Part shown: piece after piece, positions 14,818-61,159 of the stretch
How the letters are laid out: every line of letters begins with the position of its first letter
How positions within the stretch are numbered: the stretch's first letter is position 1
Sequence record: OQ973471.1
Length of the DNA stretch: 64,000 nt
Direction: 5' to 3' (one strand)
Origin: Escherichia phage AV101
Made by a program: the position numbers and the translations under genes
Notes under the pieces: model-generated
Seen by the model: the letters and a program-made list of their open reading frames with translations, nothing else
What the model was told of the DNA's origin: nothing
The model's database searches: none

Positions 14818-14915
14818 ACAATCAACGATGCTGGCCTCATCGTTGACTGCTGAAATATTCAATATGTCTAGCGTATTACGCGCCATGACTCATTCCCCTT
14901 TTACAATAGTTTGAA

Positions 14916-16414: not shown

Positions 16415-17083
16415 TTACTCAATCTGTGCGCCGACGAAGTAATTGATCGTCGCGTCGGATGATTGGAAGTTCACCATTTGTAGATCAGCACATGCACGCA
16501 GAGTGTAGTTGCCTTCGATCATTTTCAGGTTGGCAACATCCAGTGGCATTACGAAGTCCGGCAGCGCGGTTTCGCCCAGCTCAACAGTGTAGTTGTTGGA
16601 GTTGTCCAGGGTAGTGGTGGTTGCAACCAGGCGAGTTTTGCCACCCTGAGCAACCAGGCGCACAGTCTTGTGTCCGAGGGTAGAACAGGCGCGGGTCAGT
16701 TCTTTCATCTTCTCTGGAGTGATGATCGCTTCAAAGTCGACAGACGGCAGTTCAATAGTATCAGCCGGGACAACCGTGAGTTCTTTAGCAGAACGCCAGA
16801 ATTGCAGCTGAGAACTTTCGCCTTTCAACAGGATGTAGTCCTGATGGAATTCGGCTTTGGCACCTTTGAAGGAAGGTAGGCGCTGGATGGCCAGAAGTTT
16901 GGTCAGGTCCAGAATCGGGAACTCAAACGGGAAGTCTTCTTCGATCTGCGCCACGGCGATCACAGTAGAAGAATCATTAATACTGCGCAGCATCTTGCCC
17001 GGTGTCAGAACGATAGATGGGTTGATGGTCTCAAAGTTGGCCAGCAACTGAAGTGTACGTTCGGAGAGAGTGATCTCTTGCAT
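16415..17083 (-). CDS. sliding clamp (T4 gp45-like)
   Basis: TLQLLANFETINPSIVLTPG and VANLKMIEGNYTL resemble T4 gp45 (TTALLKNFATINSGIMLKSG, MANMKMQPGNYKL); 222 aa. Confidence 0.7.
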   Translation of the reverse strand: MQEITLSERTLQLLANFETINPSIVLTPGKMLRSINDSSTVIAVAQIEEDFPFEFPILDLTKLLAIQRLPSFKGAKAEFHQDYILLKGESSQLQFWRSAKELTVVPADTIELPSVDFEAIITPEKMKELTRACSTLGHKTVRLVAQGGKTRLVATTTTLDNSNNYTVELGETALPDFVMPLDVANLKMIEGNYTLRACADLQMVNFQSSDATINYFVGAQIE

Positions 17084-22496: not shown

Positions 22497-22510
22497 AAGA
22501 AAATACCCCC

Positions 22511-22521
22511 ATGGATGATGG
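22511..22521 (-). promoter_or_regulatory. late-promoter-like motif CTAAATACCCC with flanking inverted repeat
   Basis: Motif and its complement form a palindrome around 22500-22535. Confidence 0.4.
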
Positions 22522-22541
22522 GGGTATTTAGGGATCATGGT

Positions 22542-33201: not shown

Positions 33202-35097
33202 TTAAGACGCCGCGACGATACCACCGCCAGATTCGATCTCGGAGAACTCCATGTCTGGTCGAACGGAAGCAAAATCCAAAAATATCCAATTTATTGAGTA
33301 TTCCGGCTTGAGCCAGATACCCGCGACCATGGTGTTGGCTGCGATAACATCAGCGGTGTTGTTGTCCTCGTCACACTTCACCATCCCGTCATAGATCGCG
33401 CCCATGTTGGCCAACTGGCGGATATATGGGCGGACAGCGTTGCTGAACAACCCACGAGTGAATGCATCGTTGTTCTCACCAAGGTAGTATTTGGCGATGG
33501 CTGCGATGTTCTGCTCTGCCATAATGAACAGACCACGAACGTTGATGCGGTCGAACGCAGATGGGCGGGTCAGGCCAGTCTTGTCGCCGTACAACACGAT
33601 GCCTTCGTTGGAGAAGGTGACGATGCTGTTGATCTGGTTGCGATACAGCACAGCACGCTCATCAGAAGACGCAGACCACGCCATTCGATTATAGTTGTTG
33701 TATTTACCACGGTTGTGGAACGCCGGAGATTTGTAGATACCCGCGATTTCAATGCTTCGCGCCCAAACACCTGCGGTGCCGCCACAAGCCGGAATCCAAC
33801 GCATTTTGTCGTTGTACTTGTCGTACACATACGCCCAGTTGTCATCCATGAAGAAGTAGGAGGAGTCGCGAACAAGGCTTTCACGCCAGGCCACAACATC
33901 ATCCATCTCACGGCCACGGTTTCCGACGACCGTATCGCGAAGAGGAGACACGAAGGACACTGTGTCTTTACGCTCAGTGGACAGGTCGATCAGTGCCTGC
34001 TGCTCAATCAGTTCTTCACAGAAACCGAACACTGGCTTGGCATCATACGCTTCGGCGTTGTTCAGTGCCTGGATAGCCGCAACACGGTTCCCAGTGTAAT
34101 CGTCTACACCACCTTCGAGTTCAATGACACCAGCAGCCAGGGTAGTGGCGAAGGTGTACACCCAATTTGAGGTGCCGTTGATCACGTCTTTGAAGTACGC
34201 ATTGGATCCATCAGATTTCTTAGAACCCTGAGCGGTCTGCACCAGTTCATACTTCTCGATGATCGTACCGGAAGCACCAACAGTGGTGACGGCAGCGGTA
34301 GCAGTCAGACCATTCGCGTCTGGAACAATCGCAGTCGCAGCCTGAGGACCGATTGCTTTGTGAGTGACGGTGACGGTGTTGGACTTCACGACAACAGAAG
34401 AATACACGTCAGACAGGGACGTCAGCGCGGTTCCGATCTTTGTCGCCAGAGTCGCCGGGGTGTCAGCGTCAGTGTACGCCACGGCTTCACCAGCAACAGA
34501 GATGGAACCAGCAGCGGTGGCAGTACCGGATACAGAGATACGATCAACCTGACTAACAGCGCCAGAAGAGTCGGTGATGCGACCTACTTTGTCAACGATG
34601 GCGATATGGTACTCGCCATCCTGCGGAGCATATGCGAAGTTGTTACGGAATTCCCAGGTCGGGAACAGCGCAGCGTCACAGATGTTCACAGCAATGTCGT
34701 TACCCAGAGAGCCAGCATAGCGGCCTGTCCAGGTAATAGACGCAGATGGAGACGCAGTTTCGAAGTCTAGTTTGTTGCGGATAAGGATTGCAGTCTGACC
34801 TTTGGTTACAGCGTTGCGTGCCGCCGGACCGACCACACGGGTCACCCATGCAACAGAGCTGTAAGACAGGAAGTCGGCAATCACCAAGAAGTCGGTCGCA
34901 GTTGCATCGTTTGGCTTGAAGAATTTCTTCACCAGACCAGTTTCACCACCAGTGACCAACACAGGGAGTTCTGCCTCACCCCATTGGAATTTGCCGACAG
35001 TCGCACCCTGAACAACAACGGATGGAGACGTCTGAAGCGTGGCATCACGCTCAGTCCACTGTACGGACGGCGCAACGCTGAAGCTTTGAGTTGCCAT
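33202..35097 (-). CDS. tail sheath protein (T4 gp18-like)
   Basis: 631 aa from MATQSFS (listed ORF start is TTG); GAAGGAA RBS; CTAAATAT motif upstream; position as in T4. Confidence 0.8.
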   Translation of the reverse strand: MATQSFSVAPSVQWTERDATLQTSPSVVVQGATVGKFQWGEAELPVLVTGGETGLVKKFFKPNDATATDFLVIADFLSYSSVAWVTRVVGPAARNAVTKGQTAILIRNKLDFETASPSASITWTGRYAGSLGNDIAVNICDAALFPTWEFRNNFAYAPQDGEYHIAIVDKVGRITDSSGAVSQVDRISVSGTATAAGSISVAGEAVAYTDADTPATLATKIGTALTSLSDVYSSVVVKSNTVTVTHKAIGPQAATAIVPDANGLTATAAVTTVGASGTIIEKYELVQTAQGSKKSDGSNAYFKDVINGTSNWVYTFATTLAAGVIELEGGVDDYTGNRVAAIQALNNAEAYDAKPVFGFCEELIEQQALIDLSTERKDTVSFVSPLRDTVVGNRGREMDDVVAWRESLVRDSSYFFMDDNWAYVYDKYNDKMRWIPACGGTAGVWARSIEIAGIYKSPAFHNRGKYNNYNRMAWSASSDERAVLYRNQINSIVTFSNEGIVLYGDKTGLTRPSAFDRINVRGLFIMAEQNIAAIAKYYLGENNDAFTRGLFSNAVRPYIRQLANMGAIYDGMVKCDEDNNTADVIAANTMVAGIWLKPEYSINWIFLDFASVRPDMEFSEIESGGGIVAAS

Positions 35098-39399: not shown

Positions 39400-39420
39400 A
39401 TCGATACCCTCAATTTTGAA

Positions 39421-39429
39421 GGTATTTAG
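39421..39429 (-). promoter_or_regulatory. late-promoter-like motif CTAAATACC
   Basis: About 25 nt upstream of the gp14-like ATG. Confidence 0.35.
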
Positions 39430-44000: not shown

Positions 44001-45899
44001 AAGGTAGTATGCCGCATCGCGTTGACCGCCGTCCAGAGTGAAGTTAGAGGTGACGTCAGCGCCATTTGCGTTCTTCACGCTGATCAGCTTGTAGCCGTCG
44101 TGGTTCCCAAGTTGTGCGCTGGCCGCCGCAGTAAACGTCACAGTCTCGGTGACTTCGGTAACAGTCTTGGTCTTGATCGTCGCTGTGGTGCGGACCATCA
44201 ATGCCAACAGGTTGATAGACTGGTTGGCATACCCCGCGCCCAGGGAAATCTGCAGTGCTGAGCCAACCGGAGTACCAGCCAGGGACAGTCCCGAAGAGAT
44301 ATCAAACTGAGCTGCAGTGCCATCTGCTTTCGCTGCGGAGTACAGTGAAAACTCAGGGCTGAAGCTGTAACCCAGAGGAGCGGAGATTGAGCCTGCACCA
44401 GCAGCGTTCAACGTGATCTTGTTTGACCGCAGGACGGTGTAGTTGATGTCGATGGTGCCTGTAGGTGCTAGAGTCTTCACACCAAATACAGGCAGAGGGA
44501 AGATCAGGTCAATTGCTGAACTCTGGCTGAACTGATTGGACTCCAGTTCGCAAGAGAACATCGTTGTGCCGCTTTCTTCATAAGCGACTTTGGTCACCGT
44601 GCCCATGTCCCCAGTCACAACCAGGTCGCGCATATACAGACGGAATTCAGTACCAGAGCGCTCTGCCGAAATCAGCAGGGCGGTGGCCTGTACATCGCTG
44701 GATGCGTTCAGGAACTTGTAGCGGATTGTGCGGGAGACAACCGGAACCCCTTTGGAGTTCTTGGACACCAGATAGTTGCCAGTCGAAACAGCCACAGGGT
44801 TGTTGTTCAGGATATCAGTGTCACGGGCTTTGTCAATTATGACCAGCTCTTCGCCGAGGTTTTCGATACGACGACCACGAACGTAGGATATCCCTGGCTT
44901 CATAACCGCCACGAATTTGCTTTCGTCGCCACCTTCGGCCGGAGTGTACACGCCGCCGTTGTTGTTCTGTTTCAGATGTTCGCGCAGGTCGATCTGGTGA
45001 GTAGAGACGTTGTAGTCACCATTGGTCTCATAGGTGCGCTGAGCCATCGCGTCTTCGAGGATGTTGTACGTTGACTGGGCGACCATAGACTGAATGCGAC
45101 CGTCTTTCACCTTCGCCAGTTCAACGAAGTCGGCCACTTCTTCATCATAACCGTAGCGAGACAACACGAGGTCGACGCGCAGGCGATGCGCACCAGGGGC
45201 TTTAGAGTTCGGAGTACCCTGAGCATTGGAGAACAGACTTTCATCTTCTGCTTCGGTCACGATTGTTTCTGTAACTTTGAAGCCAATGCGGTGAGATGTA
45301 GAGTTCGATGCGTTGTCTACGATCAAAGTGGTTGGTTCAACATCCAGGAACATACCACGAACGAAATAAACACCCTTTGTCATGCGAGCGACAATCGAAC
45401 CACCAACAGTAGCGGCCACACCATAGCCGACACGGATGAAGTTATCGTTCACGTCATAGGTGTTGAAATATAGATTGTCACCAGCTTCGAAACCGTCTGA
45501 ACTACCACTCTCAGTCATCTCTAAGATAGCATACATTGTATCCGGCTCAACTGGGTAACGTTCCAGAGACAGGACGCGTGCTTTCGCATTGTTGTCCTTG
45601 CCCAGAACATAGAGTTCGGAGATACCTTCCAAATCAGTGAACTCACTACCACCAGCCAGAGTGAACTTCATGGACACAGCAGTGTTGGTGATCGTTAGGC
45701 CGCCGGGGATAACCATTGAACCGTCTTTGAACAGATGGTTGCCAAGTTTCTCCAGTTGATCCTGGAAGATGGTCTGCATCTGGTTCAGTTCACGAGTCTG
45801 AACTTTGATCGGTGCCGGACGGAATAGAATGCGCGAAAAACGCTTCTCTGGATTCCAGTCATCCCAATATGGGCGGCGGTTGAGGTTCATTTCTTGCAT
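41061..45899 (-). CDS. large virion structural protein (about 1612 aa; baseplate or tail-fibre component)
   Basis: Listed ORF start is TTG; ATG at MQEMNLN has GGAG RBS and CTAAATAT motif about 40 nt upstream; Ser/Thr/Gly/Asn-rich beta-type composition. Confidence 0.7.
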   Translation of the reverse strand: MQEMNLNRRPYWDDWNPEKRFSRILFRPAPIKVQTRELNQMQTIFQDQLEKLGNHLFKDGSMVIPGGLTITNTAVSMKFTLAGGSEFTDLEGISELYVLGKDNNAKARVLSLERYPVEPDTMYAILEMTESGSSDGFEAGDNLYFNTYDVNDNFIRVGYGVAATVGGSIVARMTKGVYFVRGMFLDVEPTTLIVDNASNSTSHRIGFKVTETIVTEAEDESLFSNAQGTPNSKAPGAHRLRVDLVLSRYGYDEEVADFVELAKVKDGRIQSMVAQSTYNILEDAMAQRTYETNGDYNVSTHQIDLREHLKQNNNGGVYTPAEGGDESKFVAVMKPGISYVRGRRIENLGEELVIIDKARDTDILNNNPVAVSTGNYLVSKNSKGVPVVSRTIRYKFLNASSDVQATALLISAERSGTEFRLYMRDLVVTGDMGTVTKVAYEESGTTMFSCELESNQFSQSSAIDLIFPLPVFGVKTLAPTGTIDINYTVLRSNKITLNAAGAGSISAPLGYSFSPEFSLYSAAKADGTAAQFDISSGLSLAGTPVGSALQISLGAGYANQSINLLALMVRTTATIKTKTVTEVTETVTFTAAASAQLGNHDGYKLISVKNANGADVTSNFTLDGGQRDAAYYLSNLISSTGAISGTFTVVYQYFAHSSGDFFTADSYSSINYPDIPNYVSSSSGTVYGLADSLDFRPKITSGASDTDMVRPNTAIILDAEYYLPRIDAVYLADNGVFNVARGVSSNNLASPAIPDNSMRLYELMIPPYTANIDDIQIRTIDNRRYTMRDIGKLETRISNVEYYTSLSQLESSAMAQQVFDPITGNPRFKNGIAADPFKDFRLIDDLSTDWVGSIDTDNGRLRPFVQQNAIDLTPVGWNNVQDGMVVCNYTREISVRQDYATTTINVNPYAVFNWEGFLKLNPTTDYWFENYYVTPRVINETINTRGAIKEGSVYGTWRTVSVSERVWEPHGAGGVWWGYRYRTTVSTRDITTYTYTDRTTTTMTGEQIVETQVIPYMRKTNINFEATGLRPFTRVYPFFSGRDVSAYCTPNGGVLGGALNTDANGNIKGVFAVPQNETIKFNTGDNVFRLTDSPVDSKSADDTLTNAEAVHKSFGKKQGIQKTYVNTRVLGYTATKSTENKTETVEVAKWKDPIAQSFMVATNIGGEYIEGIEVFFSTKSRDIPITLEIREMSNGLPATTVVTRKTLNPSEVSVSTDSSVPTMFKFDYPVYLQAQTEFAIVLLANTQDYNAYIAEMGKKNLLTNEFIAKQPYTGVFFTSSNGTTWTPNQTADMKFRVYRCNFSAGSNIVTFDAKVGPKIRPLGLNTVKCVNGSSTVTVYAPGHGLTAGESVTLSGLTGGCGFTPEQLNAQHTVTDATFTTFKFVLSSNADSDGQIGGEAASFLGNYLVDMFYASVTNSALEGSVLKLEYRYRDATSNSFSDWVEFESDTDVSLPTEGIYRQVGDFQVRATMTRNESNVYTAPMIDGDDFTIIFNTYGVDPFEDVFSYVTKDIGFDNPCTTLKQYFGAMLPSQSSMTVQVKLLRAGQEMDNVAWETVTPTSPLVNDGSTFFEYEYDKTVDSTNPFVGLKIRLLVRGNRTAPPSFKDFRLIALA

Positions 45900-46497: not shown

Positions 46498-48699
46498 TTA
46501 CTGGATAACAATACTACACTCCATATCTGAAACAACACCCGCATTGCTGTATGTTGTAATAGTCCATGATGTTGTTGATGTTTTATTAACAACAACATAC
46601 CGTCCAGTACCAGGTGAAGAAAAAGTGTAGCCCGCGCGTGACATATCAGTAGGGAAGTTGATGACCCAAATACCAACGGATGATTTAGTCGCGGTACAAC
46701 CAGCAGCAAGAGCAAGCGCACCAGAAGAGTTGATATTAACTACGCACGGTGAACTTACCAGCTTAACCACACCAGAGTCGAGAGTATATGTATCGTAAAC
46801 TGTGCCGATGCGGTTCATCCCAAGATATGTCACCGCAGAAGAAGCCAATCCCGCCCGGTTACGTAGCACGACAGACACCCCAAGACCTGAGCAGTTAGTA
46901 ACTTGCTGGTCAGAAACCATACCGGAAGTGGAACTGTATTGTTCAAGAACTGCGTCAACCGTGTTTGATCCGTTGTAGCAATTGAACGTTACATTTTCCA
47001 ATCTGTTTCTGCGCACGCTTTTCCCAAAATCAGACCTAACATTACATATACGGTTATATTGCCCAGGGGTATTAATGGTGACCATACCTCCACTGATAAC
47101 GTTATCTAAGCAGTCTGTTAAAGAAATTTGATGGTCAAAAAATCCATATGCGCTCTTGAAGTCGCCGTTGTTCTGCATGAATATCTGAACGTTTTCGATT
47201 CGGTTATTGCTGCACCCCTGTAAAGCCACCACGTGGTCGTTACCGTTAAATGCTCCATTGGAAATACTGGTAAACTTACCGCCGATGATTTTGCAGTTGG
47301 TGCAGCCTCTAGAGAATTTAATATTATTATTACCGCCTACGGCGCCATCAACACTCCCCAAAACGGATGAATTCATAACGCCCTCACAATCTATGAATTT
47401 AAAATCCGTGGTCGGGAACCCAGTGCCATCTGCGGATGTAGCATGGTAGTTTATTAGTAGCCCGTTTTCTGCGTACCCTTCAGATACATATCCACCTTTA
47501 ACACCTAGAACCTCCATATTCCCCCCGGCTTTAGGCTGCCCAATGAAGCGAGGAAATGTAATCTCGGGATATAGTGCACCAATTAATACAAAATTACCGT
47601 GGTTTGGACCCTTGAATCCTGTGTTATCAAATGTGCAACTATTGGATCTTACACCTACTCGACGAGAAGAATCTGATGCGCCATAGGCTGTATTACCCAT
47701 ACGTAGAGGGGTTACTTCTGTGGATAGCGTGGTAAAGTAAATACCAGAGACTTCGGTATAATTTCCTGTTAACTCCACTGCACCTTTTGTTTGGTCGAAA
47801 GATGACCCGACCAATGTTATTATACCACCGCGACCTATCAATCTACGGTTATCAAGATCACTGATAACATTACTTGATAAAGTCACATTAATGTCAATAT
47901 AAACTGTTTTATAGTGAGTAATCAGTACATATAGCAAAGAGCTTACATCGTCACCCTCAGCAGCCCATGCTGATATAAAAGTATCAACGTCATCCTCTAT
48001 TTTTTCAAGGTAAACAATTGTAGAGTCAATTGTCATGGTTTGATCACTTATTGACCCTATAACTCCAGATACTTCTGGCTTAATTCTGTAGATACCAGAA
48101 TCAGTATTAACAAATGACGTACCAACTGGAACTGTACCTCCAACCTGTGCAACTGATGAGATATCTAATGGGTAAACGTTACCGCCAATAACTTTATTTC
48201 TCATATCATTAACGTCACATCGAAGTGAAGCATCCCCAACACTAATCCACGCTCCTAAACCTTCTCCACCCGTTGACCCTGGAGTTGTGTCAGCAGGAAC
48301 TACTTTAGGCAGTACACCATCCCATCGGTACTTACCATCAGTAAATACAACCAGTTCATTCTTAGTATTAACTGTTACGCCCGTAGAAAATGATCCAGGT
48401 AGGGTTACATACTCTTCGCGGGTAACAGCTAGTGCACCCAAGTCCACATTACCAGCAGAGTGAACTAATACCCCAGTAGGACTAAGGCTTACAGCAGTAA
48501 CCCCTGAACCAATGTCAGCAGGTAGGGAATAAGCCCGTTGTGACACTTTGTCATAGATGACTTTATAACCGCTTAGTACAGCACCCACCGAGAAGTAAAC
48601 AACCTCGGATTGTTTAACCCCAAAGTGTCGGGCCACTGCTTGTTTATTGGTTAAGATTCCGGTTGAACCTTTACCACCTTGTGAGAACATTTCGTTCAT
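46498..48699 (-). CDS. tailspike protein (733 aa) with shared N-terminal module
   Basis: N-terminus (GVKQSEVVYFSVGAVLSGYKVIYDK...GKYRWDG) also found in the 648-aa and 1102-aa proteins; Gly/Asn/Thr/Ser-rich C-terminal body. Confidence 0.8.
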   Translation of the reverse strand: MNEMFSQGGKGSTGILTNKQAVARHFGVKQSEVVYFSVGAVLSGYKVIYDKVSQRAYSLPADIGSGVTAVSLSPTGVLVHSAGNVDLGALAVTREEYVTLPGSFSTGVTVNTKNELVVFTDGKYRWDGVLPKVVPADTTPGSTGGEGLGAWISVGDASLRCDVNDMRNKVIGGNVYPLDISSVAQVGGTVPVGTSFVNTDSGIYRIKPEVSGVIGSISDQTMTIDSTIVYLEKIEDDVDTFISAWAAEGDDVSSLLYVLITHYKTVYIDINVTLSSNVISDLDNRRLIGRGGIITLVGSSFDQTKGAVELTGNYTEVSGIYFTTLSTEVTPLRMGNTAYGASDSSRRVGVRSNSCTFDNTGFKGPNHGNFVLIGALYPEITFPRFIGQPKAGGNMEVLGVKGGYVSEGYAENGLLINYHATSADGTGFPTTDFKFIDCEGVMNSSVLGSVDGAVGGNNNIKFSRGCTNCKIIGGKFTSISNGAFNGNDHVVALQGCSNNRIENVQIFMQNNGDFKSAYGFFDHQISLTDCLDNVISGGMVTINTPGQYNRICNVRSDFGKSVRRNRLENVTFNCYNGSNTVDAVLEQYSSTSGMVSDQQVTNCSGLGVSVVLRNRAGLASSAVTYLGMNRIGTVYDTYTLDSGVVKLVSSPCVVNINSSGALALAAGCTATKSSVGIWVINFPTDMSRAGYTFSSPGTGRYVVVNKTSTTSWTITTYSNAGVVSDMECSIVIQ

Positions 48700-48719
48700 A
48701 TAAACCTCTTTGTTTTTCT

Positions 48720-48746
48720 AGTAAACCCCTCCGAAGAGGGGATTGT
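48720..48746 (-). terminator. hairpin terminator (UUCG tetraloop)
   Basis: CCCCTC-CGAA-GAGGGG. Confidence 0.5.
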
Positions 48747-51050
48747 TTAATTACTAATCTTACCACGTATGGATAGCTCAAGAGCGCCAGTTGATACACC
48801 TGCTGCGTTAATTTGGGTTCTTGAACCATTTGCCGTTTTATAAAAGAATTCTATAGAGCTGCCGTTCAAAACAGCTATTACCCCAATGTTGCTTTGGTTG
48901 ATGTTCCCAAAGCAGGAATTCTGGCTTGGTTCTGATGTAGGCCCAAAATAGCACTTAAGTCCACGAGGCAGAGTAACGGATAACGAACCCGAAGGGCTGG
49001 AAATTGCCGTCACATTAATAAGTAAAGAAATGTCTATGTGTTCACCGTCTCTGCGTAAACTATATGTGCCGGAAGAAGTTATTCCTACGCCATTGAATGA
49101 TATGCTTCCTGTAAGATTGCTTAAATTACCAGCGATATACTCAGGGAGCCTAACAAGGTTAGTAAACAATGTATCTTGATGACCAGAGTCGTATGATGCT
49201 CTTTCAACAATTAACTTAGATGGATTTATTACATCTGCAATTTCAATCTCATTTCTGGCAGACTCTCCTTTAAAATACACCAAAGCCATGTTTGTGTTTA
49301 CGTCTTCCGGATGGATCAACGCATTCCCCGCTATTATCTTATTACGCCAACCCTCTATGTAAAACCCTACACCACCGTTTGATCTACTTGAGCCAAGTGA
49401 ACTGTTAATTTTTGTCACAGTGTCTGCGTAAGGTCTAATGAAAGTTGAAGCGCTACCAGAAATGAGAAACGGTATTTTACACTGCATATTAGGGTATTTT
49501 TGGGATGAATCGGTTGAAGTTACAGGATAACCCCACGGGTGAGGGTTGATAAAAACTGTACCACTACCTTTTACATCGTGAATTCCGATACCGTAAGCGA
49601 CGGTTACTACATCTTTGAACGTTGAATCGGTTACATTAGAACGGAAACCGATCTTCTCTGAATCCTCCCATGCGTGAATCCATGATAAACATTTGTCGAT
49701 TACTATTTCGTAACCTTTCCCAGAAACCCCTCCAACGTCAACCCCACCGTTAAGAAAGCCGAAAGTTTGTAGATTGCGTATATACACATTAGCTATGTCG
49801 GTAATTACTACTCCTTTCGAAGCAATATGCTGGTCAGTGTAGCCGGAAGGCTCTCTGTTCGCGGTGTATGTTAAGGTTAGTCCCGTAACAGAGGCAGACT
49901 TAGCATTATTAAACACTCCATTTTCTGTAGTAATAATATAAGCAGCGTTCTCTGTGTTACTTTGCGCAGTGGTAAAAGTGTAATTCCCGGAAGGGGAAGC
50001 TATGATTCTACCTGTGCATAAAACATTCAAACCATCATAGTGTATGACACTTGAAGATATATTGTAGTCATTGGCAAGCAACACGCTCTTATTATTTGAA
50101 CGAGCATATGCGTATGCCTCATTTATCATAACGGCCCAGTCAGTTTCCCCTGGATGATTTTCATAGAACTGTTCTGGAGTTACGAATCGGAAAGAGTCTT
50201 TTAACTTAACAAGAGATTCTTCAACAGTGTCACCGGAGCTAGTATGAATCATACTTGACCCAGTATTGGCAGCAAGTTCACTCTTCAACTTGGCAGCCGA
50301 ATCAGGCACTTCAACTAGAGGGACTGTAATAGGACCAGGATTATAGGTTAACTGCCCATTGGATACGGAGCCAATATAGACATTGGACGGTAACGACGGC
50401 AAGCCATAAGACTTCTGTTCATTAACAGAGTAAACAACCTTCTTACCATTGAGGGACTGAGTAGTATCAGTGCTGAGAATTACTTCAGAGTCTTTTACAT
50501 TAGCTGCACGAGCGATTTCTTGAATACTTCGGTCAAACAACGGACTGATATTCGGTTGTTTAACAGACATTTCAGCGACTACCCAAACGCCTGCAGTCAG
50601 CGCGGTTTGTAAAGACACTTTCCCTGTCGTGCTGTTATAGGAATATTCAATTTCGGGTGTTTTGTACTCACCACCGATATAAAGAGATTGGACTCCATAA
50701 GATGTGTAATCAGGAGTGAACTCGGTTTCACCTCCTATAGCCTGGAACTTATAGATTCGAATCCCGGTTTTATAATCTTCTGGAGACAGAATCTTATCAA
50801 ACAGACAGAACACAACATCACCTTTGGACAATGCGCGTCCGAGATTCAACGTATTTCCATCGATTTCAAAGTTGTCTAACGGAACTTGCATACCACCGTT
50901 GATTGTGACTATACCAGTGACAGGGTAGAAAGGGAGGGAGATAAACTTCTCTCCGCCCGTTGCTGTGTAAGTGTATGGAATCTGGTGCGGAGCTGTTACG
51001 ACCGCTCCAAAGATGCTCTCGACGTTTCTGGTCATTTGAAGATACCCCAT
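48747..51050 (-). CDS. tailspike protein (767 aa)
   Basis: Contains the VKDSEV linker-type segment shared with the 1102-aa protein; beta-rich body. Confidence 0.75.
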   Translation of the reverse strand: MGYLQMTRNVESIFGAVVTAPHQIPYTYTATGGEKFISLPFYPVTGIVTINGGMQVPLDNFEIDGNTLNLGRALSKGDVVFCLFDKILSPEDYKTGIRIYKFQAIGGETEFTPDYTSYGVQSLYIGGEYKTPEIEYSYNSTTGKVSLQTALTAGVWVVAEMSVKQPNISPLFDRSIQEIARAANVKDSEVILSTDTTQSLNGKKVVYSVNEQKSYGLPSLPSNVYIGSVSNGQLTYNPGPITVPLVEVPDSAAKLKSELAANTGSSMIHTSSGDTVEESLVKLKDSFRFVTPEQFYENHPGETDWAVMINEAYAYARSNNKSVLLANDYNISSSVIHYDGLNVLCTGRIIASPSGNYTFTTAQSNTENAAYIITTENGVFNNAKSASVTGLTLTYTANREPSGYTDQHIASKGVVITDIANVYIRNLQTFGFLNGGVDVGGVSGKGYEIVIDKCLSWIHAWEDSEKIGFRSNVTDSTFKDVVTVAYGIGIHDVKGSGTVFINPHPWGYPVTSTDSSQKYPNMQCKIPFLISGSASTFIRPYADTVTKINSSLGSSRSNGGVGFYIEGWRNKIIAGNALIHPEDVNTNMALVYFKGESARNEIEIADVINPSKLIVERASYDSGHQDTLFTNLVRLPEYIAGNLSNLTGSISFNGVGITSSGTYSLRRDGEHIDISLLINVTAISSPSGSLSVTLPRGLKCYFGPTSEPSQNSCFGNINQSNIGVIAVLNGSSIEFFYKTANGSRTQINAAGVSTGALELSIRGKISN

Positions 51051-51140
51051 AGAGGATTTGCCAATATGGGGTATTTAGTCTGAACTAATAAATTTATGAA
51101 CAAAGGTATAACAAGAACCGCCGAAGAGGGGGTTTGATTT
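51036..51140. repeat. about 100-bp duplicated upstream cassette, copy A
   Basis: Near-identical to 53518-53632; includes CTAAATACCCC (as GGGGTATTTAG), an ATACCCCAT/ATGGGGTAT inverted repeat and a terminator hairpin. Confidence 0.7.
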
Positions 51141-51330
51141 TACTCTCCAAAATCACGATCCTGTCTTCCCTTGCCTGATTATCAAACAGAGTCTTCAATC
51201 GTTCCTCCAGTCTGAATAGGAACAGTTCACCTGATTCATTCATAATATTACCGTAATTGTACCCCAATGAGGCCGTATCATAGGATGGCTCTTAGATAAT
51301 GCTTAGTATGATGGGATACATCCATACATA

Positions 51331-51546
51331 GTGTCTGGCACTATATCTATAGCAGGAACTCTTAGCTATAGCATATACCTTACACATCAGACGGTAATGT
51401 TCTCCGTTGTTAATATATTTTCAGCCATTTCAACTAAAGAAATGATGACAACATATGCATTACTTACAACCGCATTAATTTCGGCTGTGATAACAATGAT
51501 CGTATCGATACTTCTGTACAACAAAGTTGAGAAAAAGTTCATATAA
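51331..51546 (+). pseudogene. C-terminal remnant of an acyltransferase-3 family (O-acetyltransferase-like) membrane protein
   Basis: LSYSIYLTHQTVMF resembles the AT3-family SYSIYLWH motif, followed by a hydrophobic helix; AT-rich; no ATG start (GTG in frame); plus strand within the minus-strand tailspike cluster. Confidence 0.4.
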
Positions 51547-51551
51547 TAACA

Positions 51552-51575
51552 AGGCCCATTATCGGGCCTTTTGTT
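51552..51575 (+). terminator. rho-independent terminator
   Basis: GGCCC-ATTATC-GGGCC followed by TTTTGTTTAT. Confidence 0.5.
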
Positions 51576-53521
51576 TATAGCTGGCAAGTAAAGCTCAAGT
51601 CTATTGATGCATGACCTGTTATCAGATCTGTTATCTGAACATCTTCAGGAGATCCACTTCTGAAGATCTTTCTAAAAAATATTTTACCTCCAGTAATATA
51701 CCCAATAACTTCAATTAGGTTGGTGTCAGCGCGTATAGTATTATTCAATATTGTGAATATTGAGCCAGTGCAATCACCCTTGAATGAGCTTAGGTAAGGG
51801 GGAAGAGATATTGAAAACGCACCGGATCCAACGTTGCTTGTTATGTTGCATTCAATAGTTAACCTTCCTGATACGCTGCGCTGAGTCAATTCATGCCTAT
51901 ATACTTGTGAAGTATATGCGCAAGGTGCGTTTATGGTTGGGTTGAATCCAGTGGACTGAGGGAAAACGTAGAAGCTTTGTAAGTTACCACCAGATACAGT
52001 ATTATTGATTGGCGTTGCTGAACCAGAAAACACATACACACCACCATCTTCGATACCTGAAACATCAGAACTAACAGGTTCTCTAATGCTATTATCCGTT
52101 CCACTAATGTAGAATACCTTCCCATACTTAGGACCATCATTTTCATGAAAAAGGACTCTTGGGCACACCAAGTTGTTATTGAAACCAGATATTACATATC
52201 CGATCCCACCATTAGCTATACTTGCTGGCTGTGTTTTGTCAAGCTTATGTGGCGTGTCAGAATAATAATTAATAACGTTATTTGAACTACCACCAAGCTT
52301 TAAACCAATTAACATCACGCGTGTTGTTCTAATTCCATCTAACCCCCAGACGTGTGTGTTAACTATGTCATTTGCTCCGCTTGTAACTTCCATGCCGACA
52401 GGATATCCAACTACCGTTGTATTGATATACATACTATCAGAAGTACGGTGTAATATCCCACTAACGCCAGATGTTCCAAGCTGGTCTTCCGGTGCTACAA
52501 CTACTGTATTATTGAATTTCCACTCATAACCCTTTTCAATATTAATACCTCCATTTAGCATATTGAAAATTCTTGCGTTATTTATCACTGGTCCAACACC
52601 ATCAGTACCATAGATTCCAACAGCCGATATTGACGATTCTGGCTCAATATAAAGATTGTCAATAAGGACTCTATTTCCTGTTTGTATAGCTGTTATACCA
52701 TCATTATAAGGTGATCTCCATTTATCATCTTTTACTTCTATAACAACTGTATCAGTAAAATTCTTGGGTACGATAGACCCTATATTATGCATTCTTGCTC
52801 CACTATTTAAAACAAGACGCGATGTTATGCATGTTTTACCAATAAACAATACGGTTCTTTTATTTGTTGCTGACCAATCTAAAGCTTGCTGATTAGGAAT
52901 GGTATCATCATCAATACCATTACATTTAGCGCCAAATGATCGGTTTGTAATGCAATCAGTCAATACATCTTCAACAATTCTTGTTGAAAAACCTGTTGGC
53001 CCAAATCCTATTAATCCTGCCCCTGTTGGCTTAGCGAGGTCAGATCTTAGCGCCGCATCACCAACACTAACCCACGCACCAACAGCAATACCTCCAGCAG
53101 TTTCAGGGGTTGAACCAGCTGGCACTACTTTGGGAAGCTCCCCATCCCAGCGATACTTCCCCGTTGTATAGGTAAGTAATTCATTTTTAACATTAAGGGT
53201 AGCACCTGTATCGAAAGATCCTGGTAAGGTTACGTATTCTTCGCGGCTTACTGCTAATTCCCCAAGATCAACAGAACCCGCTGAATGAGTGAGGATAGCT
53301 CTTTTATCCAGACTTATCGCAGTCGTTCCTGAAACAATACCTGAAGGAAGAGAATAAGCCCGTTGGGTAGACTCATTATAAATTACTTTAAATCCACTGA
53401 GATCAATACCAGCAGTGAAATAAATGACTTCGTCTTCTTTGACACCGAAATTTCGAGCGATAGATTGTTTGTTAACTTCTATAGAAGTGGAGCCGCGTGG
53501 TTGATTGAATTGAGAAATCAT
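51575..53521 (-). CDS. tailspike protein (648 aa) with shared N-terminal module
   Basis: N-terminus MISQFNQPRGSTSIEVNKQSIARNFGVKEDEVIYF... parallels the 733-aa protein. Confidence 0.8.
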   Translation of the reverse strand: MISQFNQPRGSTSIEVNKQSIARNFGVKEDEVIYFTAGIDLSGFKVIYNESTQRAYSLPSGIVSGTTAISLDKRAILTHSAGSVDLGELAVSREEYVTLPGSFDTGATLNVKNELLTYTTGKYRWDGELPKVVPAGSTPETAGGIAVGAWVSVGDAALRSDLAKPTGAGLIGFGPTGFSTRIVEDVLTDCITNRSFGAKCNGIDDDTIPNQQALDWSATNKRTVLFIGKTCITSRLVLNSGARMHNIGSIVPKNFTDTVVIEVKDDKWRSPYNDGITAIQTGNRVLIDNLYIEPESSISAVGIYGTDGVGPVINNARIFNMLNGGINIEKGYEWKFNNTVVVAPEDQLGTSGVSGILHRTSDSMYINTTVVGYPVGMEVTSGANDIVNTHVWGLDGIRTTRVMLIGLKLGGSSNNVINYYSDTPHKLDKTQPASIANGGIGYVISGFNNNLVCPRVLFHENDGPKYGKVFYISGTDNSIREPVSSDVSGIEDGGVYVFSGSATPINNTVSGGNLQSFYVFPQSTGFNPTINAPCAYTSQVYRHELTQRSVSGRLTIECNITSNVGSGAFSISLPPYLSSFKGDCTGSIFTILNNTIRADTNLIEVIGYITGGKIFFRKIFRSGSPEDVQITDLITGHASIDLSFTCQL

Positions 53522-53632
53522 GATAATACCCCATAAAGGATGACCAATATGGGGTATTTAGTCTGAACTAATCAAATTTATGAACAAAGGTATAATAAGA
53601 ACCCCGCCAAAGCGGGGTTTGACACTCCTATT
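53518..53632. repeat. about 100-bp duplicated upstream cassette, copy B
   Basis: See copy A. Confidence 0.7.
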
Positions 53633-53799
53633 CCAGACACATTTCAAAATATATACCAACATCACCCCACCCATCATAAACAGACGACCCCGATATTCTT
53701 GATATCATCTATGACAACCTGAGAGAGCCAACAGCATTATCAATTAGGGTAATGCAAACAGTAAACTCTATATAAAAAGTATTATTAATAAGTAAAACT

Positions 53800-53822
53800 A
53801 ACCCCGCCGAAGCGGGGTTTTT
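53800..53822 (-). terminator. rho-independent terminator (UUCG tetraloop)
   Basis: AACCCCGC-CGAA-GCGGGGTTTTT immediately downstream of the 1102-aa gene. Confidence 0.6.
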
Positions 53823-53824
53823 AC

Positions 53825-56800
53825 TTATATTACTGACGTCACAGTTCCAGATATAGACGCTTTTACACTTGAAGTTGGATTTGGTCTAACTTGAACAGTA
53901 CCCCTGTTACCAGATGCTCCGATAAACACATCATATCCGGTTGAAGCATTAAAGTCAGAGAACAGACTTACAGGAGCATTATTTTGCGCAACTAGTGTAG
54001 CTGATGATGTCCCATATCGCTTCAATATACCAGGTGTAGTAGCAGAAGAATTACCATCCCTTCTGCATACAATATCCAAGTCAAACGTGTAACCATCAAA
54101 CCCGTACTGTGCAGTATCCTGGAAGAACTTCATTACTTCAGTGGTTGAGCCCCCAGCCGGAGCAACATGGTTGAAACCGGAGAAGGTCATACGAGTAAAT
54201 CGGTTATCTTGTACAACAGTATCAAATGTCTTTTCAATCTTAAGACTACTAAGCCCATATACACCGTTTAAGATAATGGGGTTTTGTACTCGGGCGTTCA
54301 TGCGAATATCTAGCGCAGGGGCACTGTATAAATCTATACGTTCGCCCACAGCCCCAGAACGATCGGTAATGTTAACAGCAATAGAAAAAGTGGTATCGTT
54401 TCCTTCAATTTTGATGGAAGAGCGTTTATCCGCATTAATTGAAATGGCAGGGGATGTCTCAGCTGTTGACATTCCAATAATCGTTAACGCTCGCACATAC
54501 TTAGTGATATATATCTTTGCTTCTTCACTATAGTTACCTGCCAAATATGTTGCCTGGCTGTCACCAATTCTTACCTCACCTGTTTCAATTGTACTTGAAA
54601 TTACTGACGTACCAATAATGGGAACTTCAACCTTAGTCCCAGATTGAAACTCAGAAGTCATTGCACGGTCAAGTGTCAACACATTCCCAGAGATTGCTGT
54701 TATACGCCGTGTTTCTACACCTCCAGTAGAATTAGTGAAAGCAATCTCAAACCAAGTATCGAATCCAGCTGCGTCAGCAACAGTAACAGTAGTATCCCCA
54801 ATATTTGCTGCTGAGCTAAGTGTCGTACTCATTCCTTCAATAGAAACCGTACACTGTCCCGTACTACCACCAATATAGCCCATCAACTTTATCGAGTTAT
54901 TTCGGACGCGAACACCATACTTAGTTCTGGTGGAGCCATTTGTTGTTCCTTGCGAATGACCATGCCAATTAATAACCAGATGTAAAAGATCATAATTACT
55001 GATGCGGTGGTTAATTGATTTATTTCTAATGGTTGTATAGGGCGCTGTGTAAATAGCTCTCCCAGCTGCTGATGATCCTTTTTCCTCTACTCCACCATTA
55101 ACCGTGAAACCCTCAATGGTTTGATGCCAGTGTAGTCGATCTCGATTCCTATCTCGTGGGTCAATACCAACGTGGTGTAGCGAAATATCTGAATCTGCTG
55201 ACATAAGAATAGTTGCGTCATTGCCAGCACCAGAGAAGGTGAACCCACGACGGTCAACATCAAGAGTCACTTGGTTGGTACTAAAAGTACCAGATGGAAA
55301 ACTGAGCTTTCTAATAACTGCATTAGCTCGTGCTACACGGTTAGCCTCATCTATAGCAGCAGAGTTAGCAACAGGGTCAGTTCCACCAAAACCAAACTCT
55401 TCATAACCCATATTACGGTGTAATATTAGGTTAGCAAATAAACCATTTGCAAGGGTTATAGCATATGTGCTGCTATCTTTCGTAGCACTGACTCGCCATT
55501 TCGATATTGTTTTAATACCATATTCGTTAGCTGCTGTTTCAACTAGCATTCCCTCTACTAATGGAATATTCTCACCCGATGGTAGGGTTCCTGTCACAAG
55601 TTCGCTAACCGTTTTAAAATTAATTGTAATATTCTTATTCACCCATTTCTTAATGGAGTGGACACCTACACTAATCCATAAACCACTACCAATACCTCCA
55701 GTTGTTGCTGGAGTAGAGTCAGCGGGGACTTCTTTAGGCAATGCACCATCCCAACGGTATTTACCATCTGTAAAGACAACTAACTCATTCTTGGTATTAA
55801 CAGTTACACCTGTATCGAATGAACCAGGTAAGGTCACGTACTCCTCACGAGATACAGCTAATGCGCCCAGATCAACACTACCAGCAGAATGCACAAGTAC
55901 AGCCGAAGAACTAAGGCTGACTGCCGTGGTTCCAGTCGGTAGCTCTGGAATAAAATATGATCTCTGTGTTACTTTATCATAGATAACTTTATACCCACTT
56001 AACACAGCACCAACACTAAAATAAACGACCTCTGTATCTTTAACATTGGTTACACGAGCCACTTCCCGCAAAGTATAATCAATTTGATTATAGATGTTTG
56101 GTGTTCCATTGATAATTACAACAACTTCATCCTCTGGTTCCAGTTCTTGCGCAAGAGTGATTTTACTGGTTAATGGATCGAATGTGAACCCCAGATTTTT
56201 ATACTGGCGACTTCCGTTTATATCAATGGCCGGAACATCATCAACAACGACGTCCAACGTGATTTCGGTTTCACCACCAATCGCTGAACCCCCATTATAG
56301 ACCCAGGTAATCGTAGAAGAACCAGAACCACCGCCAGTGCCCAACTGAACCGGAGTATATTCTATTACCTGCAATTCAGTGCTGGCGGGCAAAGAAGGAC
56401 TGAAAGTGATTACATTCCCATCTAGTGAATATTTGGATTCCACAAGACGTTTTCCGTCAGCATATACGTCCACGATTATTGGTGGAGTATTGAGAGCGAC
56501 AGAACTTGTTTCAGACGCCAAAATTTGTGTAAATATTTCACGACTGTAGACACGACCTTGGCCAAGACCGACGCCGGATGTAATAATCCAACCTTGTTCA
56601 GGTCCAGACCAAGTGAACGTTGCTGATACGTTATCAGTTGTTATAGCCATGTCTTCAGTGGAGCCATACAAATTATTTCCAGAAGGAGACACGGTCAATG
56701 GGTAAGTGGCAAATTTCCCATAAGCATCACAAATAGTAACAGAATCCCCAATACGCGTAGGGGAAGGGAGAACCACTGTAGATGCCCCTGTGGTATTATT

Positions 56801-57133
56801 AATGAGATAGCCTCGCCCTTCAGTGAGCGTTGCCGTAGAGGCATGCGGAAGGACTTCCCAGCGGATGCCACCGCCACCCAGCGGCAACCATCCACCATTT
56901 TCATAGAAACCCTCAAATTCGTCGGAGTCGGCATTGTAGCGAACGGAAGACGGGAGTCCTGCGCTGGCATTACCCTCGGGTAAAGTCAGGACAGCATCTG
57001 GTCCATGCTCAATCGTACCCGTGTTGAGGACACCAGCCAAAGTAGACTGCTCTTCAGCCGCCAGACCGAGAGGGAAAACAGGCTGTGTTGGTTTATTAGC
57101 CATTTCAAATACCCCTAAATGTGTTCGTTTCAT
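53825..57133 (-). CDS. tailspike protein (about 1100 aa) with extended N-terminal region and internal shared module
   Basis: Internal VKDTEVVYFSVGAVLSGYKVIYDK...GKYRWDG module; true start may be MANKPTQ at 57103. Confidence 0.8.
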   Translation of the reverse strand: MKRTHLGVFEMANKPTQPVFPLGLAAEEQSTLAGVLNTGTIEHGPDAVLTLPEGNASAGLPSSVRYNADSDEFEGFYENGGWLPLGGGGIRWEVLPHASTATLTEGRGYLINNTTGASTVVLPSPTRIGDSVTICDAYGKFATYPLTVSPSGNNLYGSTEDMAITTDNVSATFTWSGPEQGWIITSGVGLGQGRVYSREIFTQILASETSSVALNTPPIIVDVYADGKRLVESKYSLDGNVITFSPSLPASTELQVIEYTPVQLGTGGGSGSSTITWVYNGGSAIGGETEITLDVVVDDVPAIDINGSRQYKNLGFTFDPLTSKITLAQELEPEDEVVVIINGTPNIYNQIDYTLREVARVTNVKDTEVVYFSVGAVLSGYKVIYDKVTQRSYFIPELPTGTTAVSLSSSAVLVHSAGSVDLGALAVSREEYVTLPGSFDTGVTVNTKNELVVFTDGKYRWDGALPKEVPADSTPATTGGIGSGLWISVGVHSIKKWVNKNITINFKTVSELVTGTLPSGENIPLVEGMLVETAANEYGIKTISKWRVSATKDSSTYAITLANGLFANLILHRNMGYEEFGFGGTDPVANSAAIDEANRVARANAVIRKLSFPSGTFSTNQVTLDVDRRGFTFSGAGNDATILMSADSDISLHHVGIDPRDRNRDRLHWHQTIEGFTVNGGVEEKGSSAAGRAIYTAPYTTIRNKSINHRISNYDLLHLVINWHGHSQGTTNGSTRTKYGVRVRNNSIKLMGYIGGSTGQCTVSIEGMSTTLSSAANIGDTTVTVADAAGFDTWFEIAFTNSTGGVETRRITAISGNVLTLDRAMTSEFQSGTKVEVPIIGTSVISSTIETGEVRIGDSQATYLAGNYSEEAKIYITKYVRALTIIGMSTAETSPAISINADKRSSIKIEGNDTTFSIAVNITDRSGAVGERIDLYSAPALDIRMNARVQNPIILNGVYGLSSLKIEKTFDTVVQDNRFTRMTFSGFNHVAPAGGSTTEVMKFFQDTAQYGFDGYTFDLDIVCRRDGNSSATTPGILKRYGTSSATLVAQNNAPVSLFSDFNASTGYDVFIGASGNRGTVQVRPNPTSSVKASISGTVTSVI

Positions 57134-57147
57134 CTAGGGGTATTTAG
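57105..57147 (-). promoter_or_regulatory. late-promoter-like motif within an inverted repeat
   Basis: AAATACCCCTA...TAGGGGTATTT palindrome spanning the 5' end of the 1102-aa gene. Confidence 0.4.
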
Positions 57148-57155
57148 TTTTCACT

Positions 57156-58367
57156 TTAGAAAGAAGCGACTAAATTGTAGTCAACGGAGCAAGCAGTCGT
57201 CGTGTTCGCATTTGTTATCGTCAAACGAAGTTTTGAAGACACTACAGAACCCGCGAATGTCACCGTACCGGAAGTGGACTTCTGTACCAACAGTTCAGAC
57301 TTGATAGTCCCGTCACGGGTGATCGTCACGCGGTACGTATCCACGACGTTGCCTGTACCCCATTGTGCACTGATCAACACCTGGCAAAGGTTCACCAAAT
57401 CGAAGTCGGGCAACGCAGAGTTCCCAGAAGCAGAGACAGTGATACCGCTTGGGTTGGTCTTCCCGATCTTCACACGGGCAGCAATGTCGGCGTCCAGGCT
57501 TGTCATTTTGGCGTTGTAGGTCGATGTGTTGACCTTTCCAGACAACGTGGTATTGATCGTGCCAATATCACTCTGAATGCCGCTGATGGAACTGTCCAAC
57601 GCCGCCATCTTCGTGTTATACGTACTGACGTTCACTTTGTTGTTCGTCAGATCCAGTATACTGGTGTCTAGGCTAGACATCTTGGAGTTGTAAGTCGACG
57701 TGTTGACCTTCGCAGCCAGAGTGGTGTTGACAGTGTTGAACTGAGACTGGATATCCAACATATCGGCATCGTAATCAACAACCTTCAGATAAGCGTTGAA
57801 ACGCGTATCATTGAAGATAGAAGTCACAAACGCAGATGTGTCGTACTTGACAGTGTCGGTTCCACTCACCAGTAACATGGTAGTTGGCACACCAGTACCA
57901 GAGTAAGTGGCCAGATTTGTGCCATCGAAAGTGAGTTTGTTGTAGCCGCCAGGTAACAACTCTATTTTCAGACCAGAGTTAACCCCGGCAGTGTCTTCGC
58001 TCACGCCGTGCTTGCGCAGCATAGACAGATTGACGCCATCAGTGGAATCAACTGGCTCATCTGCGATGGTAAGTTTCTTCCCCGTAGGGATACTGACACC
58101 AGCATTGGCTCGGATTTCTGCGGCAAAAGTCTTCCGCCCGTTGATAGTTTGTTCACCACCGTCGGTGCGGATCACTTTGTTTTCCAGTGTGTCGTAGATA
58201 TTATCCACAGAACGCTTCAGCTCATACGTCAGATGAGCTGAAGGAGGGAACAACGGATCATCAACAGCGAAATCGTTGACAACATCAGTCTTGCTTATTT
58301 TATCGTCAACAGAAGAAAGGATTGCATCAATCTGCTGACCTGTGTATTGACTCAGAAAATCGGCCAT
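57156..58367 (-). CDS. tail fibre/fibritin-like protein with tandem repeats
   Basis: Three tandem repeats of about 24 aa (VNTSTYNSKMSSLD, VNVSTYNTKMAALD, VNTSTYNAKMTSLD). Confidence 0.6.
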   Translation of the reverse strand: MADFLSQYTGQQIDAILSSVDDKISKTDVVNDFAVDDPLFPPSAHLTYELKRSVDNIYDTLENKVIRTDGGEQTINGRKTFAAEIRANAGVSIPTGKKLTIADEPVDSTDGVNLSMLRKHGVSEDTAGVNSGLKIELLPGGYNKLTFDGTNLATYSGTGVPTTMLLVSGTDTVKYDTSAFVTSIFNDTRFNAYLKVVDYDADMLDIQSQFNTVNTTLAAKVNTSTYNSKMSSLDTSILDLTNNKVNVSTYNTKMAALDSSISGIQSDIGTINTTLSGKVNTSTYNAKMTSLDADIAARVKIGKTNPSGITVSASGNSALPDFDLVNLCQVLISAQWGTGNVVDTYRVTITRDGTIKSELLVQKSTSGTVTFAGSVVSSKLRLTITNANTTTACSVDYNLVASF

Positions 58368-60986: not shown

Positions 60987-61023
60987 GATAATCTCCATCA
61001 CCTGAGTTTGAATATGGTGTTGA

Positions 61024-61032
61024 AGATATTTA
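61024..61032 (-). promoter_or_regulatory. late-promoter-like motif CTAAATATC
   Basis: About 40 nt upstream of the gp6-like ATG. Confidence 0.35.
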
Positions 61033-61159
61033 GCCAACGGGAATCAAAACGCTCGCGCGCGTTTAATTTATTCGAATATAACTCGCGAGGGGGCTGACGC
61101 CCTCGCTCGTAACACCGCCCTGTGCGGGCAGCACCATTCCACAGCCATGGAGGCTGCTT

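Follow-up and report, generated by a model that had tools for sequence, protein, structure and literature searches.

Two tailspike genes of Escherichia phage AV101 (sequence record OQ973471.1), TSP2 and TSP3, are each preceded by a near-identical cassette of ~105 nt, in which a predicted late promoter box (CTAAATA) overlaps one arm of an RNA hairpin and the Shine-Dalgarno region of the gene lies in the other. The stretch analyzed comprises 64,000 nucleotides of this genome and is referred to as the window. The cassette is probably a promoter-in-hairpin unit that limits translation of the tailspike gene to transcripts from its own late promoter. The hairpins are stable by prediction, promoter-side and ribosome-side arms match each other site by site, and the arrangement recurs at many late promoters, both in this phage and in relatives from three other genera, and is not a peculiarity of the duplicated cassette.

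Anatomy of the tailspike cassettes

The window belongs to the Ackermannviridae (ViI-like), genus Agtrevirus, with 98% identity to Enterobacter phage fGh-Ecl02 and Escherichia phage PC3 and 91% identity to Shigella phage Ag3 (type Agtrevirus). Four open reading frames (ORFs) of its tailspike cluster match PHROG tail spike/fibre families (E 1e-110 to 0):

46498-48699, minus strand: TSP1-position gene
48747-51035 (longest ORF to 51050), minus strand: TSP2 gene
51575-53521, minus strand: TSP3 gene
53825-57103 (longest ORF to 57133), minus strand: TSP4 gene

The first-pass annotation of the window had placed two tailspike genes behind near-identical cassettes, and the PHROG matches and the alignment agree with it. 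Minus-strand segments 51140->51036 and 53625->53520 are identical at 91 of 108 aligned columns (84%), and their flanks (86-100 nt on each side) are 23-28% identical, that is, random; the cassette is thus a discrete duplicated unit. The proteins encoded behind the two copies have unrelated N-termini. The parts of the cassettes are:

51036-51140, minus strand: cassette 1, upstream of TSP2, with degenerate terminator, conserved spacer, late-promoter motif, hairpin and ribosome site
51118-51134, minus strand: degenerate terminator-like hairpin at the 5' end of cassette 1, with a G.G stem mismatch (repeat families D2/D4; no call in the terminator scan)
51068-51078, minus strand: CTAAATACCCC, predicted gp55-type late promoter box of TSP2
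51074->51065, minus strand: 5' arm of the TSP2 hairpin, ATACCCCATA, overlapping the promoter box
51051->51042, minus strand: 3' arm of the TSP2 hairpin, TATGGGGTAT, holding the Shine-Dalgarno-like GGGGT and a non-functional first ATG (51050-51048)
51033-51035, minus strand: probable true start codon of TSP2 (762 aa, MTRNVES...)
53520-53625, minus strand: cassette 2, upstream of TSP3, with the same parts in the same order
53600-53619, minus strand: intact intrinsic-terminator-like hairpin at the 5' end of cassette 2, AACCCCGCTTTGGCGGGGTT + CTTATTAT
53551-53561, minus strand: CTAAATACCCC, predicted gp55-type late promoter box of TSP3
53558->53548, minus strand: 5' arm of the TSP3 hairpin, AATACCCCATA
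53535->53525, minus strand: 3' arm of the TSP3 hairpin, TATGGGGTATT, in the Shine-Dalgarno region, 7 nt before the ATG at 53521

In each cassette a conserved spacer of ~40 nt separates the terminator-like hairpin from CTAAATACCCC. This motif occurs five times in the window, every time on the minus strand, against 0.53 copies expected. At the sequence level, CTAAATA lies 36 nt before the start of TSP2 and 33 nt before that of TSP3. An IMG/VR contig of 161.5 kb (L033, ~4318-4370, plus strand) carries a TSP3-type cassette whose 3' arm, ATGGGGCAT, has an A.C stem mismatch and is a natural arm variant.

Part of the motif had been described as the exact complement of a downstream segment. The inverted repeats are indeed perfect and slightly longer than noted, with 10 bp and a 13-nt loop at TSP2 and 11 bp and a 12-nt loop at TSP3. 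Folding of the two upstream regions, which had been suggested as a check, gave stable hairpins of -17.3 kcal/mol for TSP2 (z -3.35) and -20.9 kcal/mol for TSP3 (z -4.08). The window contains 41 perfect 9-bp hairpin seeds, compared with 4.4 +/- 2.5 after dinucleotide shuffling. Rfam covariance models gave no match at the gathering score over the whole window, and only chance-level matches in 50900-53900 at E up to 1, two of them on terminators.

The sequestered element is the ribosome-binding site (Shine-Dalgarno region, GGGGT) and not, as first proposed, the start codon of a 767-aa gene. In both tailspike leaders GGGGT of the 3' arm stands 7-9 nt before the ATG, and the true start codon itself is unpaired. 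The ATG at 51050 merely opens the longest ORF and is not preceded by a Shine-Dalgarno sequence; the ATG at 51035, 15 nt downstream, sits 9 nt past GGGG, matches the annotated start of the CBA120 orthologue orf211 and aligns with position 1 of the PHROG family profiles. The true start of the "767-aa" gene is therefore most likely the ATG at 51035, which gives 762 aa. Elsewhere, too, the ATG of the arm is no start: it is out of frame with the gene in the TSP3 cassette (ATGGGGTAT), it is followed by an in-frame TAA in the Limestonevirus orthologue (ATGGGGTATTAAACAAATG), and the corresponding triplet is TAG in the TSP4 leader. It is from these four cases together that the ribosome site, not the start codon, is named as the element held in the hairpin. 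Longest-ORF calls overextend two tailspike genes on the minus strand (57101-57133, 1102 vs 1092 aa; 51033-51050, 767 vs 762 aa), and the surplus ATGs fall in the hairpin loop or arm.

Recurrence and specificity of the pairing

CTAAATA occurs 11 times in the window, always on the coding strand, and 10 of these copies are followed, 23-42 nt further on, by a start codon with a Shine-Dalgarno sequence (start codons were picked by Shine-Dalgarno-based scoring). At six of the 10 sites there is a clear hairpin between box and ribosome site, with arms that differ from site to site and are mutually complementary; the six are the two cassettes, TSP4, a 242-aa gene, the neck gene and gp6 (-11 to -21 kcal/mol, z -3 to -7). 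The 5' arm contains the ATA of TAAATA at every strong site, and at every site the G-run of the 3' arm is 5-9 nt, and the end of the arm 3-8 nt, before the start codon. The same hairpins are found in Kuttervirus CBA120, Limestonevirus Coodle and Taipeivirus Magnus, with conserved stems and variable loops. The hairpin had first been noted as a feature of the duplicated cassette, where it is present, though with six of the 10 window sites and three other genera it is not specific to it. The leaders other than those of TSP2 and TSP3 are:

57106-57147, minus strand: TSP4 leader, CTAAATACCCC, arms TAAATACCCCTAGATG / CATTTAGGGGTATTTG; 16 bp, -21 kcal/mol, z -7
22501-22531, minus strand: leader of the 242-aa gene, arms AAATACCCCCAT / ATGGGGGTATTT; 12 bp
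39404-39429, minus strand: leader of the neck/head-closure gene, arms ATACCTTCA / TGAGGGTAT; 9 bp
60991-61033, minus strand: leader of the baseplate wedge (gp6-like) gene, ATCTTCA / TGGAGAT plus CACC / GGTG
CBA120 (record L003) 45330-45385, minus strand: leader of endolysin orf102, arms AAATACCTTCGCA / TGCGGAGGTATTT; 13-bp promoter/ribosome-site hairpin
CBA120 (record L003) 34205-34265, minus strand: leader of the RuvC-like Holliday-junction resolvase orf087, AAATACCCATAAC / GTTATGGGTATTT; 13-bp promoter/ribosome-site hairpin
CBA120: leader of orf229, arms ATACCCCATAC / GTGTGGGGTAT
CBA120: leaders of orf249 and orf225, same promoter/ribosome-site hairpin design

Stems of orthologous leaders are nearly invariant, so specificity was assessed on paralogous sites and by partner permutation, in which the promoter-side segment of each site was paired with its own ribosome-site region or with that of other sites. 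Mean duplex energies with the own and with foreign partners were -13.0 vs -7.6 kcal/mol in the window (n=10) and -10.8 vs -6.3 kcal/mol in CBA120 (n=14); none of 20000 permutations was as good as the cognate pairing. The arms contain site-specific pairs (CAT/ATG, CTAG/CTAG, CCAT/ATGG, CATAC/GTGTG, CATAAC/GTTATG, TTCGCA/TGCGGA). In an anchored pair table of 14 distinct hairpins, CG, TA, AT, GC and TG occur at the same stem positions. If stem positions are numbered from the nucleotide following the last A of TAAATA, pairs fill 51 of 56 cells at +4 to +7, where permuted partners fill 32.2 +/- 3.4; the anchors of this table were set on cognate pairs and bias it towards structure, a bias that the partner permutation does not share.

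Two further comparisons link the box to the hairpin. Over the four genera, 22 of 37 starts with CTAAATA at most 60 nt upstream fold at -10 kcal/mol or below with the Shine-Dalgarno sequence paired, against 17 of 167 other starts (Fisher p = 6e-10), and some of these 17 have the variant box TTAAATA. A DNA-pattern scan of IMG/VR returned mainly unrelated matches and served as a negative control: ATGGGGT follows ACTAAATACCCCAT within 50 nt in two of ~105 unrelated occurrences, and in 11 of 12 Ackermannviridae occurrences of tailspike type. A search of IMG/VR for tailspike upstream regions by protein gave eight close relatives only.

As regards the duplication rather than the hairpin, the direct repeat of ~100 bp flanking TSP3 might be a recombination linker for swap, loss or gain of tailspike modules, with the regulatory content travelling along. 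The repeat is sharply bounded, the genes downstream have unrelated N-termini, the same cassette stands ahead of TSP2 and TSP3 in Kuttervirus CBA120, and tailspike module exchange in Ackermannviridae is documented (PMC8432352, PMC11414711). Against this, other members (L041, L067, L070, L129) keep only the core of promoter, hairpin and ribosome site behind a different upstream part, and the hairpin is also present at genes other than tailspike genes. Exchange accounts for the copy number of the cassette and not for its structure; we consider it possible, though less likely than not, and it is compatible with a promoter-in-hairpin unit.

Several observations concern the surroundings of these leaders. 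The TSP1-position gene (46498-48760, minus strand) has upstream only a terminator-like hairpin (48726-48741) and an AAGAGG ribosome site; in contrast to TSP2, TSP3 and TSP4, it is without CTAAATA motif and without promoter hairpin. A family of 263-nt direct repeats (65-75% identity) lies inside TSP1, TSP3 and TSP4 (48236-48498, 53061-53323, 55665-55927) and codes for an N-terminal domain common to the three. The 403-aa ORF directly upstream of TSP4 contains two 73-nt copies (57489-57561 and 57663-57735; 78% identical, 174 nt apart). Between TSP3 and TSP2, a small hydrophobic ORF (51331-51546, plus strand; inner version MMTTYALLTTALISAVITMIVSILLYNKVEKKFI) runs to a bidirectional terminator (51551-51570), and a 'hypothetical protein' is annotated there in relatives; apart from this one hydrophobic plus-strand ORF, the tailspike intergenic stretches 51080-51600 and 53560-53830 held no convincing small ORF. 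Two IMG/VR contigs (L128, ~3062-3110, plus strand; L073, ~7666-7710, plus strand) have the layout ACTAAATACCCCAT...ATGGGG(G)TAT...ATG; tblastx of both against the compared Ackermannviridae regions found no similarity. In L128 the layout precedes an ORF with N-terminus MSMWLYEGEEFSEDIKKYEGFVYLIENLTNGR, which by eye resembles a GIY-YIG homing endonuclease (no domain search was run); in T4, genes for homing endonucleases are known to be under such control.

Proposed late control and alternatives

The box of the window is the same motif as CTAAATAcCcc, which is already listed as a signature motif of Viunalikevirus/Ackermannviridae (PMC7283392). CBA120 has a late sigma factor (gp55 homologue), a gp33-like co-activator and a gp45 clamp, and homologues of all three are reported for Ag3. 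The gp45-like clamp is encoded within the window and the gp55 and gp33 genes lie outside it; on the minus strand, 14422-14886 and 16415-17083 code for a RegA-like translational repressor and the gp45-like sliding clamp. T4 late promoters consist of an 8-bp TATA box that precedes the start site by about one helical turn. If TAAATA is aligned to the 3' end of T4 TATAAATA, the predicted transcription start falls ~6-7 nt after the box, between the T and the last A of CCCCATA. With such a start, late transcripts would be without the 5' arm and RNA started further upstream would have both arms.

Each cassette would then be a self-contained tailspike expression unit composed of a terminator, a T4-type gp55-dependent box (CTAAATA) and a leader. 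The promoter box and the following CCCCATA would form the 5' strand of the hairpin and the Shine-Dalgarno region (TATGGGGTAT) the 3' strand. RNA arriving from upstream, by read-through past the terminator or by early or middle transcription, would contain both strands, fold, and shut the ribosome site; RNA begun at the box itself would lack the 5' strand and be translatable, so that the gene would be translated only from its own late promoter. Exposing the ribosome site (-15 to +4) at TSP2, TSP3 and TSP4 is predicted to cost 19-23 kcal/mol when the RNA comes from read-through, and 7-9 kcal/mol when it starts 5-7 nt after the box. The idea that read-through RNA closes the gene and motif-started RNA cannot do so fits all computed results as far as the logic of the hairpin goes; what closes is the Shine-Dalgarno region in place of the start codon.

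Several points weigh against this explanation. We infer the promoter role of CTAAATA, the position of the transcript start, the existence of read-through RNA and the translational repression from sequence and analogy, and literature searches turned up no relevant transcriptomic or start-site data for Ackermannviridae/Kuttervirus. Pairing is weak at four of the 10 promoter sites of the window. Across orthologues of the four genera the stems hardly vary and classical covariation is sparse; support comes mainly from paralogous sites. Finally, a terminator lies ~40 nt upstream of each tailspike promoter and the upstream genes are themselves late, so RNA with the full hairpin may be scarce, and there is no evident temporal role.

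The last point bears on the timing switch first proposed for the tailspike genes, which is not an obvious use of the hairpin there. Given late upstream genes and a terminator, it is safer to speak of translation from the gene's own promoter only, and the role at the tailspike genes may be insulation rather than timing. The genes upstream of TSP2 and TSP3 are transcribed in the same direction, with terminators between them that are intact before TSP3 and degenerate before TSP2; more read-through is thus expected into TSP2 from the TSP3 side. A sigma-70 promoter scan of 48600-57300 gave 25 matches against 22.8 expected and was uninformative on early promoters feeding the cassettes.

The hairpin could also be an intrinsic terminator or insulator that halts upstream transcription at the promoter, its overlap with the ribosome site being incidental. 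The sequence bordering the stems is A-rich on the 5' side and U-rich on the 3' side (AAAUA...UAUUU), the version at the 242-aa gene (CCCCCAU-5 nt-AUGGGGG-UAUUUUCUU) resembles a real terminator, and the record of Klebsiella phage Magnus (L133, 46063-46090, plus strand) annotates the orthologous hairpin as 'terminator', overlapping an annotated ribosome-binding site. The tailspike hairpins, however, have loops of 12-13 nt and poor U tracts (UAUCUUCAA, UAUUAUCAUG), the terminator scan calls none of them, and a canonical terminator is already present ~40 nt upstream. Termination also leaves unexplained that the 3' arm is always at Shine-Dalgarno distance from the ATG, and we regard it as unlikely.

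Slightly less credible, and improbable in our judgment, is a hairpin inside the mature late mRNA, with transcription starting upstream of the motif or with CTAAATA acting as an RNA element, so that the structure would be a 5' stabiliser or an operator opened by a factor. The promoter assignment is by analogy with T4 only, the segment after the box is C-rich here and AT-rich in T4 late promoters, and the phage encodes a RegA-like translational repressor, all of which would suit such a role. On the other side, the sites of the sheath, the scaffold and a 1612-aa protein have the motif with hardly any hairpin, so the motif is independent of structure; the TAAATA core fits the T4 box and the gp55/gp33/gp45 set is present in relatives; and a block of 19-23 kcal/mol on the ribosome site is ill suited to abundant structural proteins.

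Very improbable is a complementarity without function, as a by-product of C-rich promoter extension, G-rich ribosome site and shared cassette ancestry: CCCC would pair with GGGG anyway, the tailspike cassettes are mutual copies and not independent evidence, and orthologous stems hardly vary, but the pairing reaches past both consensus elements and is site-specific yet complementary, cognate partners prevail in 20000/20000 permutations, stems are fixed while loops vary, and ATGGGGT is as rare after unrelated copies of ACTAAATACCCCAT (2/~105) as it is regular in the Ackermannviridae tailspike-type set (11/12).

T4 late promoters are AT-rich where CCCC follows the box here, which suggests that the run is kept for pairing with the ribosome site and not for promoter function, and that the lower-case 'cCcc' of CTAAATAcCcc is an anti-Shine-Dalgarno arm. 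Tentatively, this may be extended: 'cCcc' would be such an arm and no promoter determinant, about half of the Ackermannviridae late promoters would double as translational locks, and the tailspike cassettes would be portable, self-insulated units through which host-range modules could be exchanged while neighbouring genes keep their dosage.

Significance and comparison with T4

Gene regulation in the Ackermannviridae is almost unstudied. According to the 2011 paper on CBA120 the late promoter sequence had not been identified, and neither 'promoter' nor 'transcription' occurs in a 2024 review of the family. Phages of this family are now engineered for host range by exchange of tailspike genes. 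If the proposed control is correct, the late promoter of the Ackermannviridae is pinned down, the odd C-rich extension of their signature motif is explained, and naive ORF calls are corrected in their start codon for two tailspike genes or more. A tailspike gene placed with its native leader behind a foreign promoter should then be poorly translated, which is a warning for engineers. The strategy of T4 gene e would also have an earlier origin and a wider use than one would gather from the few T4 examples. As a mechanism it is classical; what appears to be new is its occurrence in Ackermannviridae, as a concrete and testable model of late gene control.

In T4 gene e (lysozyme), a late promoter inside a hairpin controls translation and delays the synthesis of lysozyme (McPheeters et al. 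1986, via PMC3014915); RNA can be translated only if it was begun at that promoter. For T4 the mechanism is proven: transcripts were mapped, 30S binding was shown, and the effect on translation is 100-fold. Promoter-in-hairpin leaders are also described for T4 soc, 49, I-TevI/II/III and segB and for Aeh1 mobE, where they lead to late-only translation within earlier transcription units (PMC3014915, PMC2988022). In the accessible literature CTAAATAcCcc appears as a bare motif only, with no mention of pairing with a downstream ribosome site, and no late-promoter/hairpin control was found there for Ackermannviridae.

The correspondence with gene e extends to the arms. In both systems a gp55-type box (TATAAATA in T4, CTAAATA here) lies in the 5' strand and the Shine-Dalgarno sequence in the 3' strand, few nt before the AUG. 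When folded here, the T4 e leader (L134, 1490-1560, minus strand; TATAAATACCTTCTA...TAGGAGGTATT) takes the same fold as the window leaders. Its arms, AAUACCUUCUA/UAGGAGGUAUU, are almost the same as those of the window neck gene (AUACCUUCA/UGAGGGUAU) and of the CBA120 endolysin (AAAUACCUUCGCA/UGCGGAGGUAUUU; leader TTTAAATACCTTCGCA...TGCGGAGGTATTT). The parallel is a strong one: in CBA120 the design precedes the endolysin and the resolvase, whose functional counterparts in T4 are e and 49.

There are differences as well. T4 belongs to the Straboviridae and the window to the Ackermannviridae, with arms that are C4/G4-rich here; gene e is downstream of early genes, whereas the tailspike genes are downstream of late genes and terminators; and the mechanism is proven in T4 and here deduced from the leaders. 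From T4 the arrangement is reported for a handful of genes among about 50 late promoters. Unlike T4, the phages compared here have it at roughly half of their recognizable late promoters (six of 10 in the window, at least 11 in CBA120), including those of major host-range determinants. The tailspike leaders thus look like the known layout of T4 gene e in a phage family in which it had not been described.

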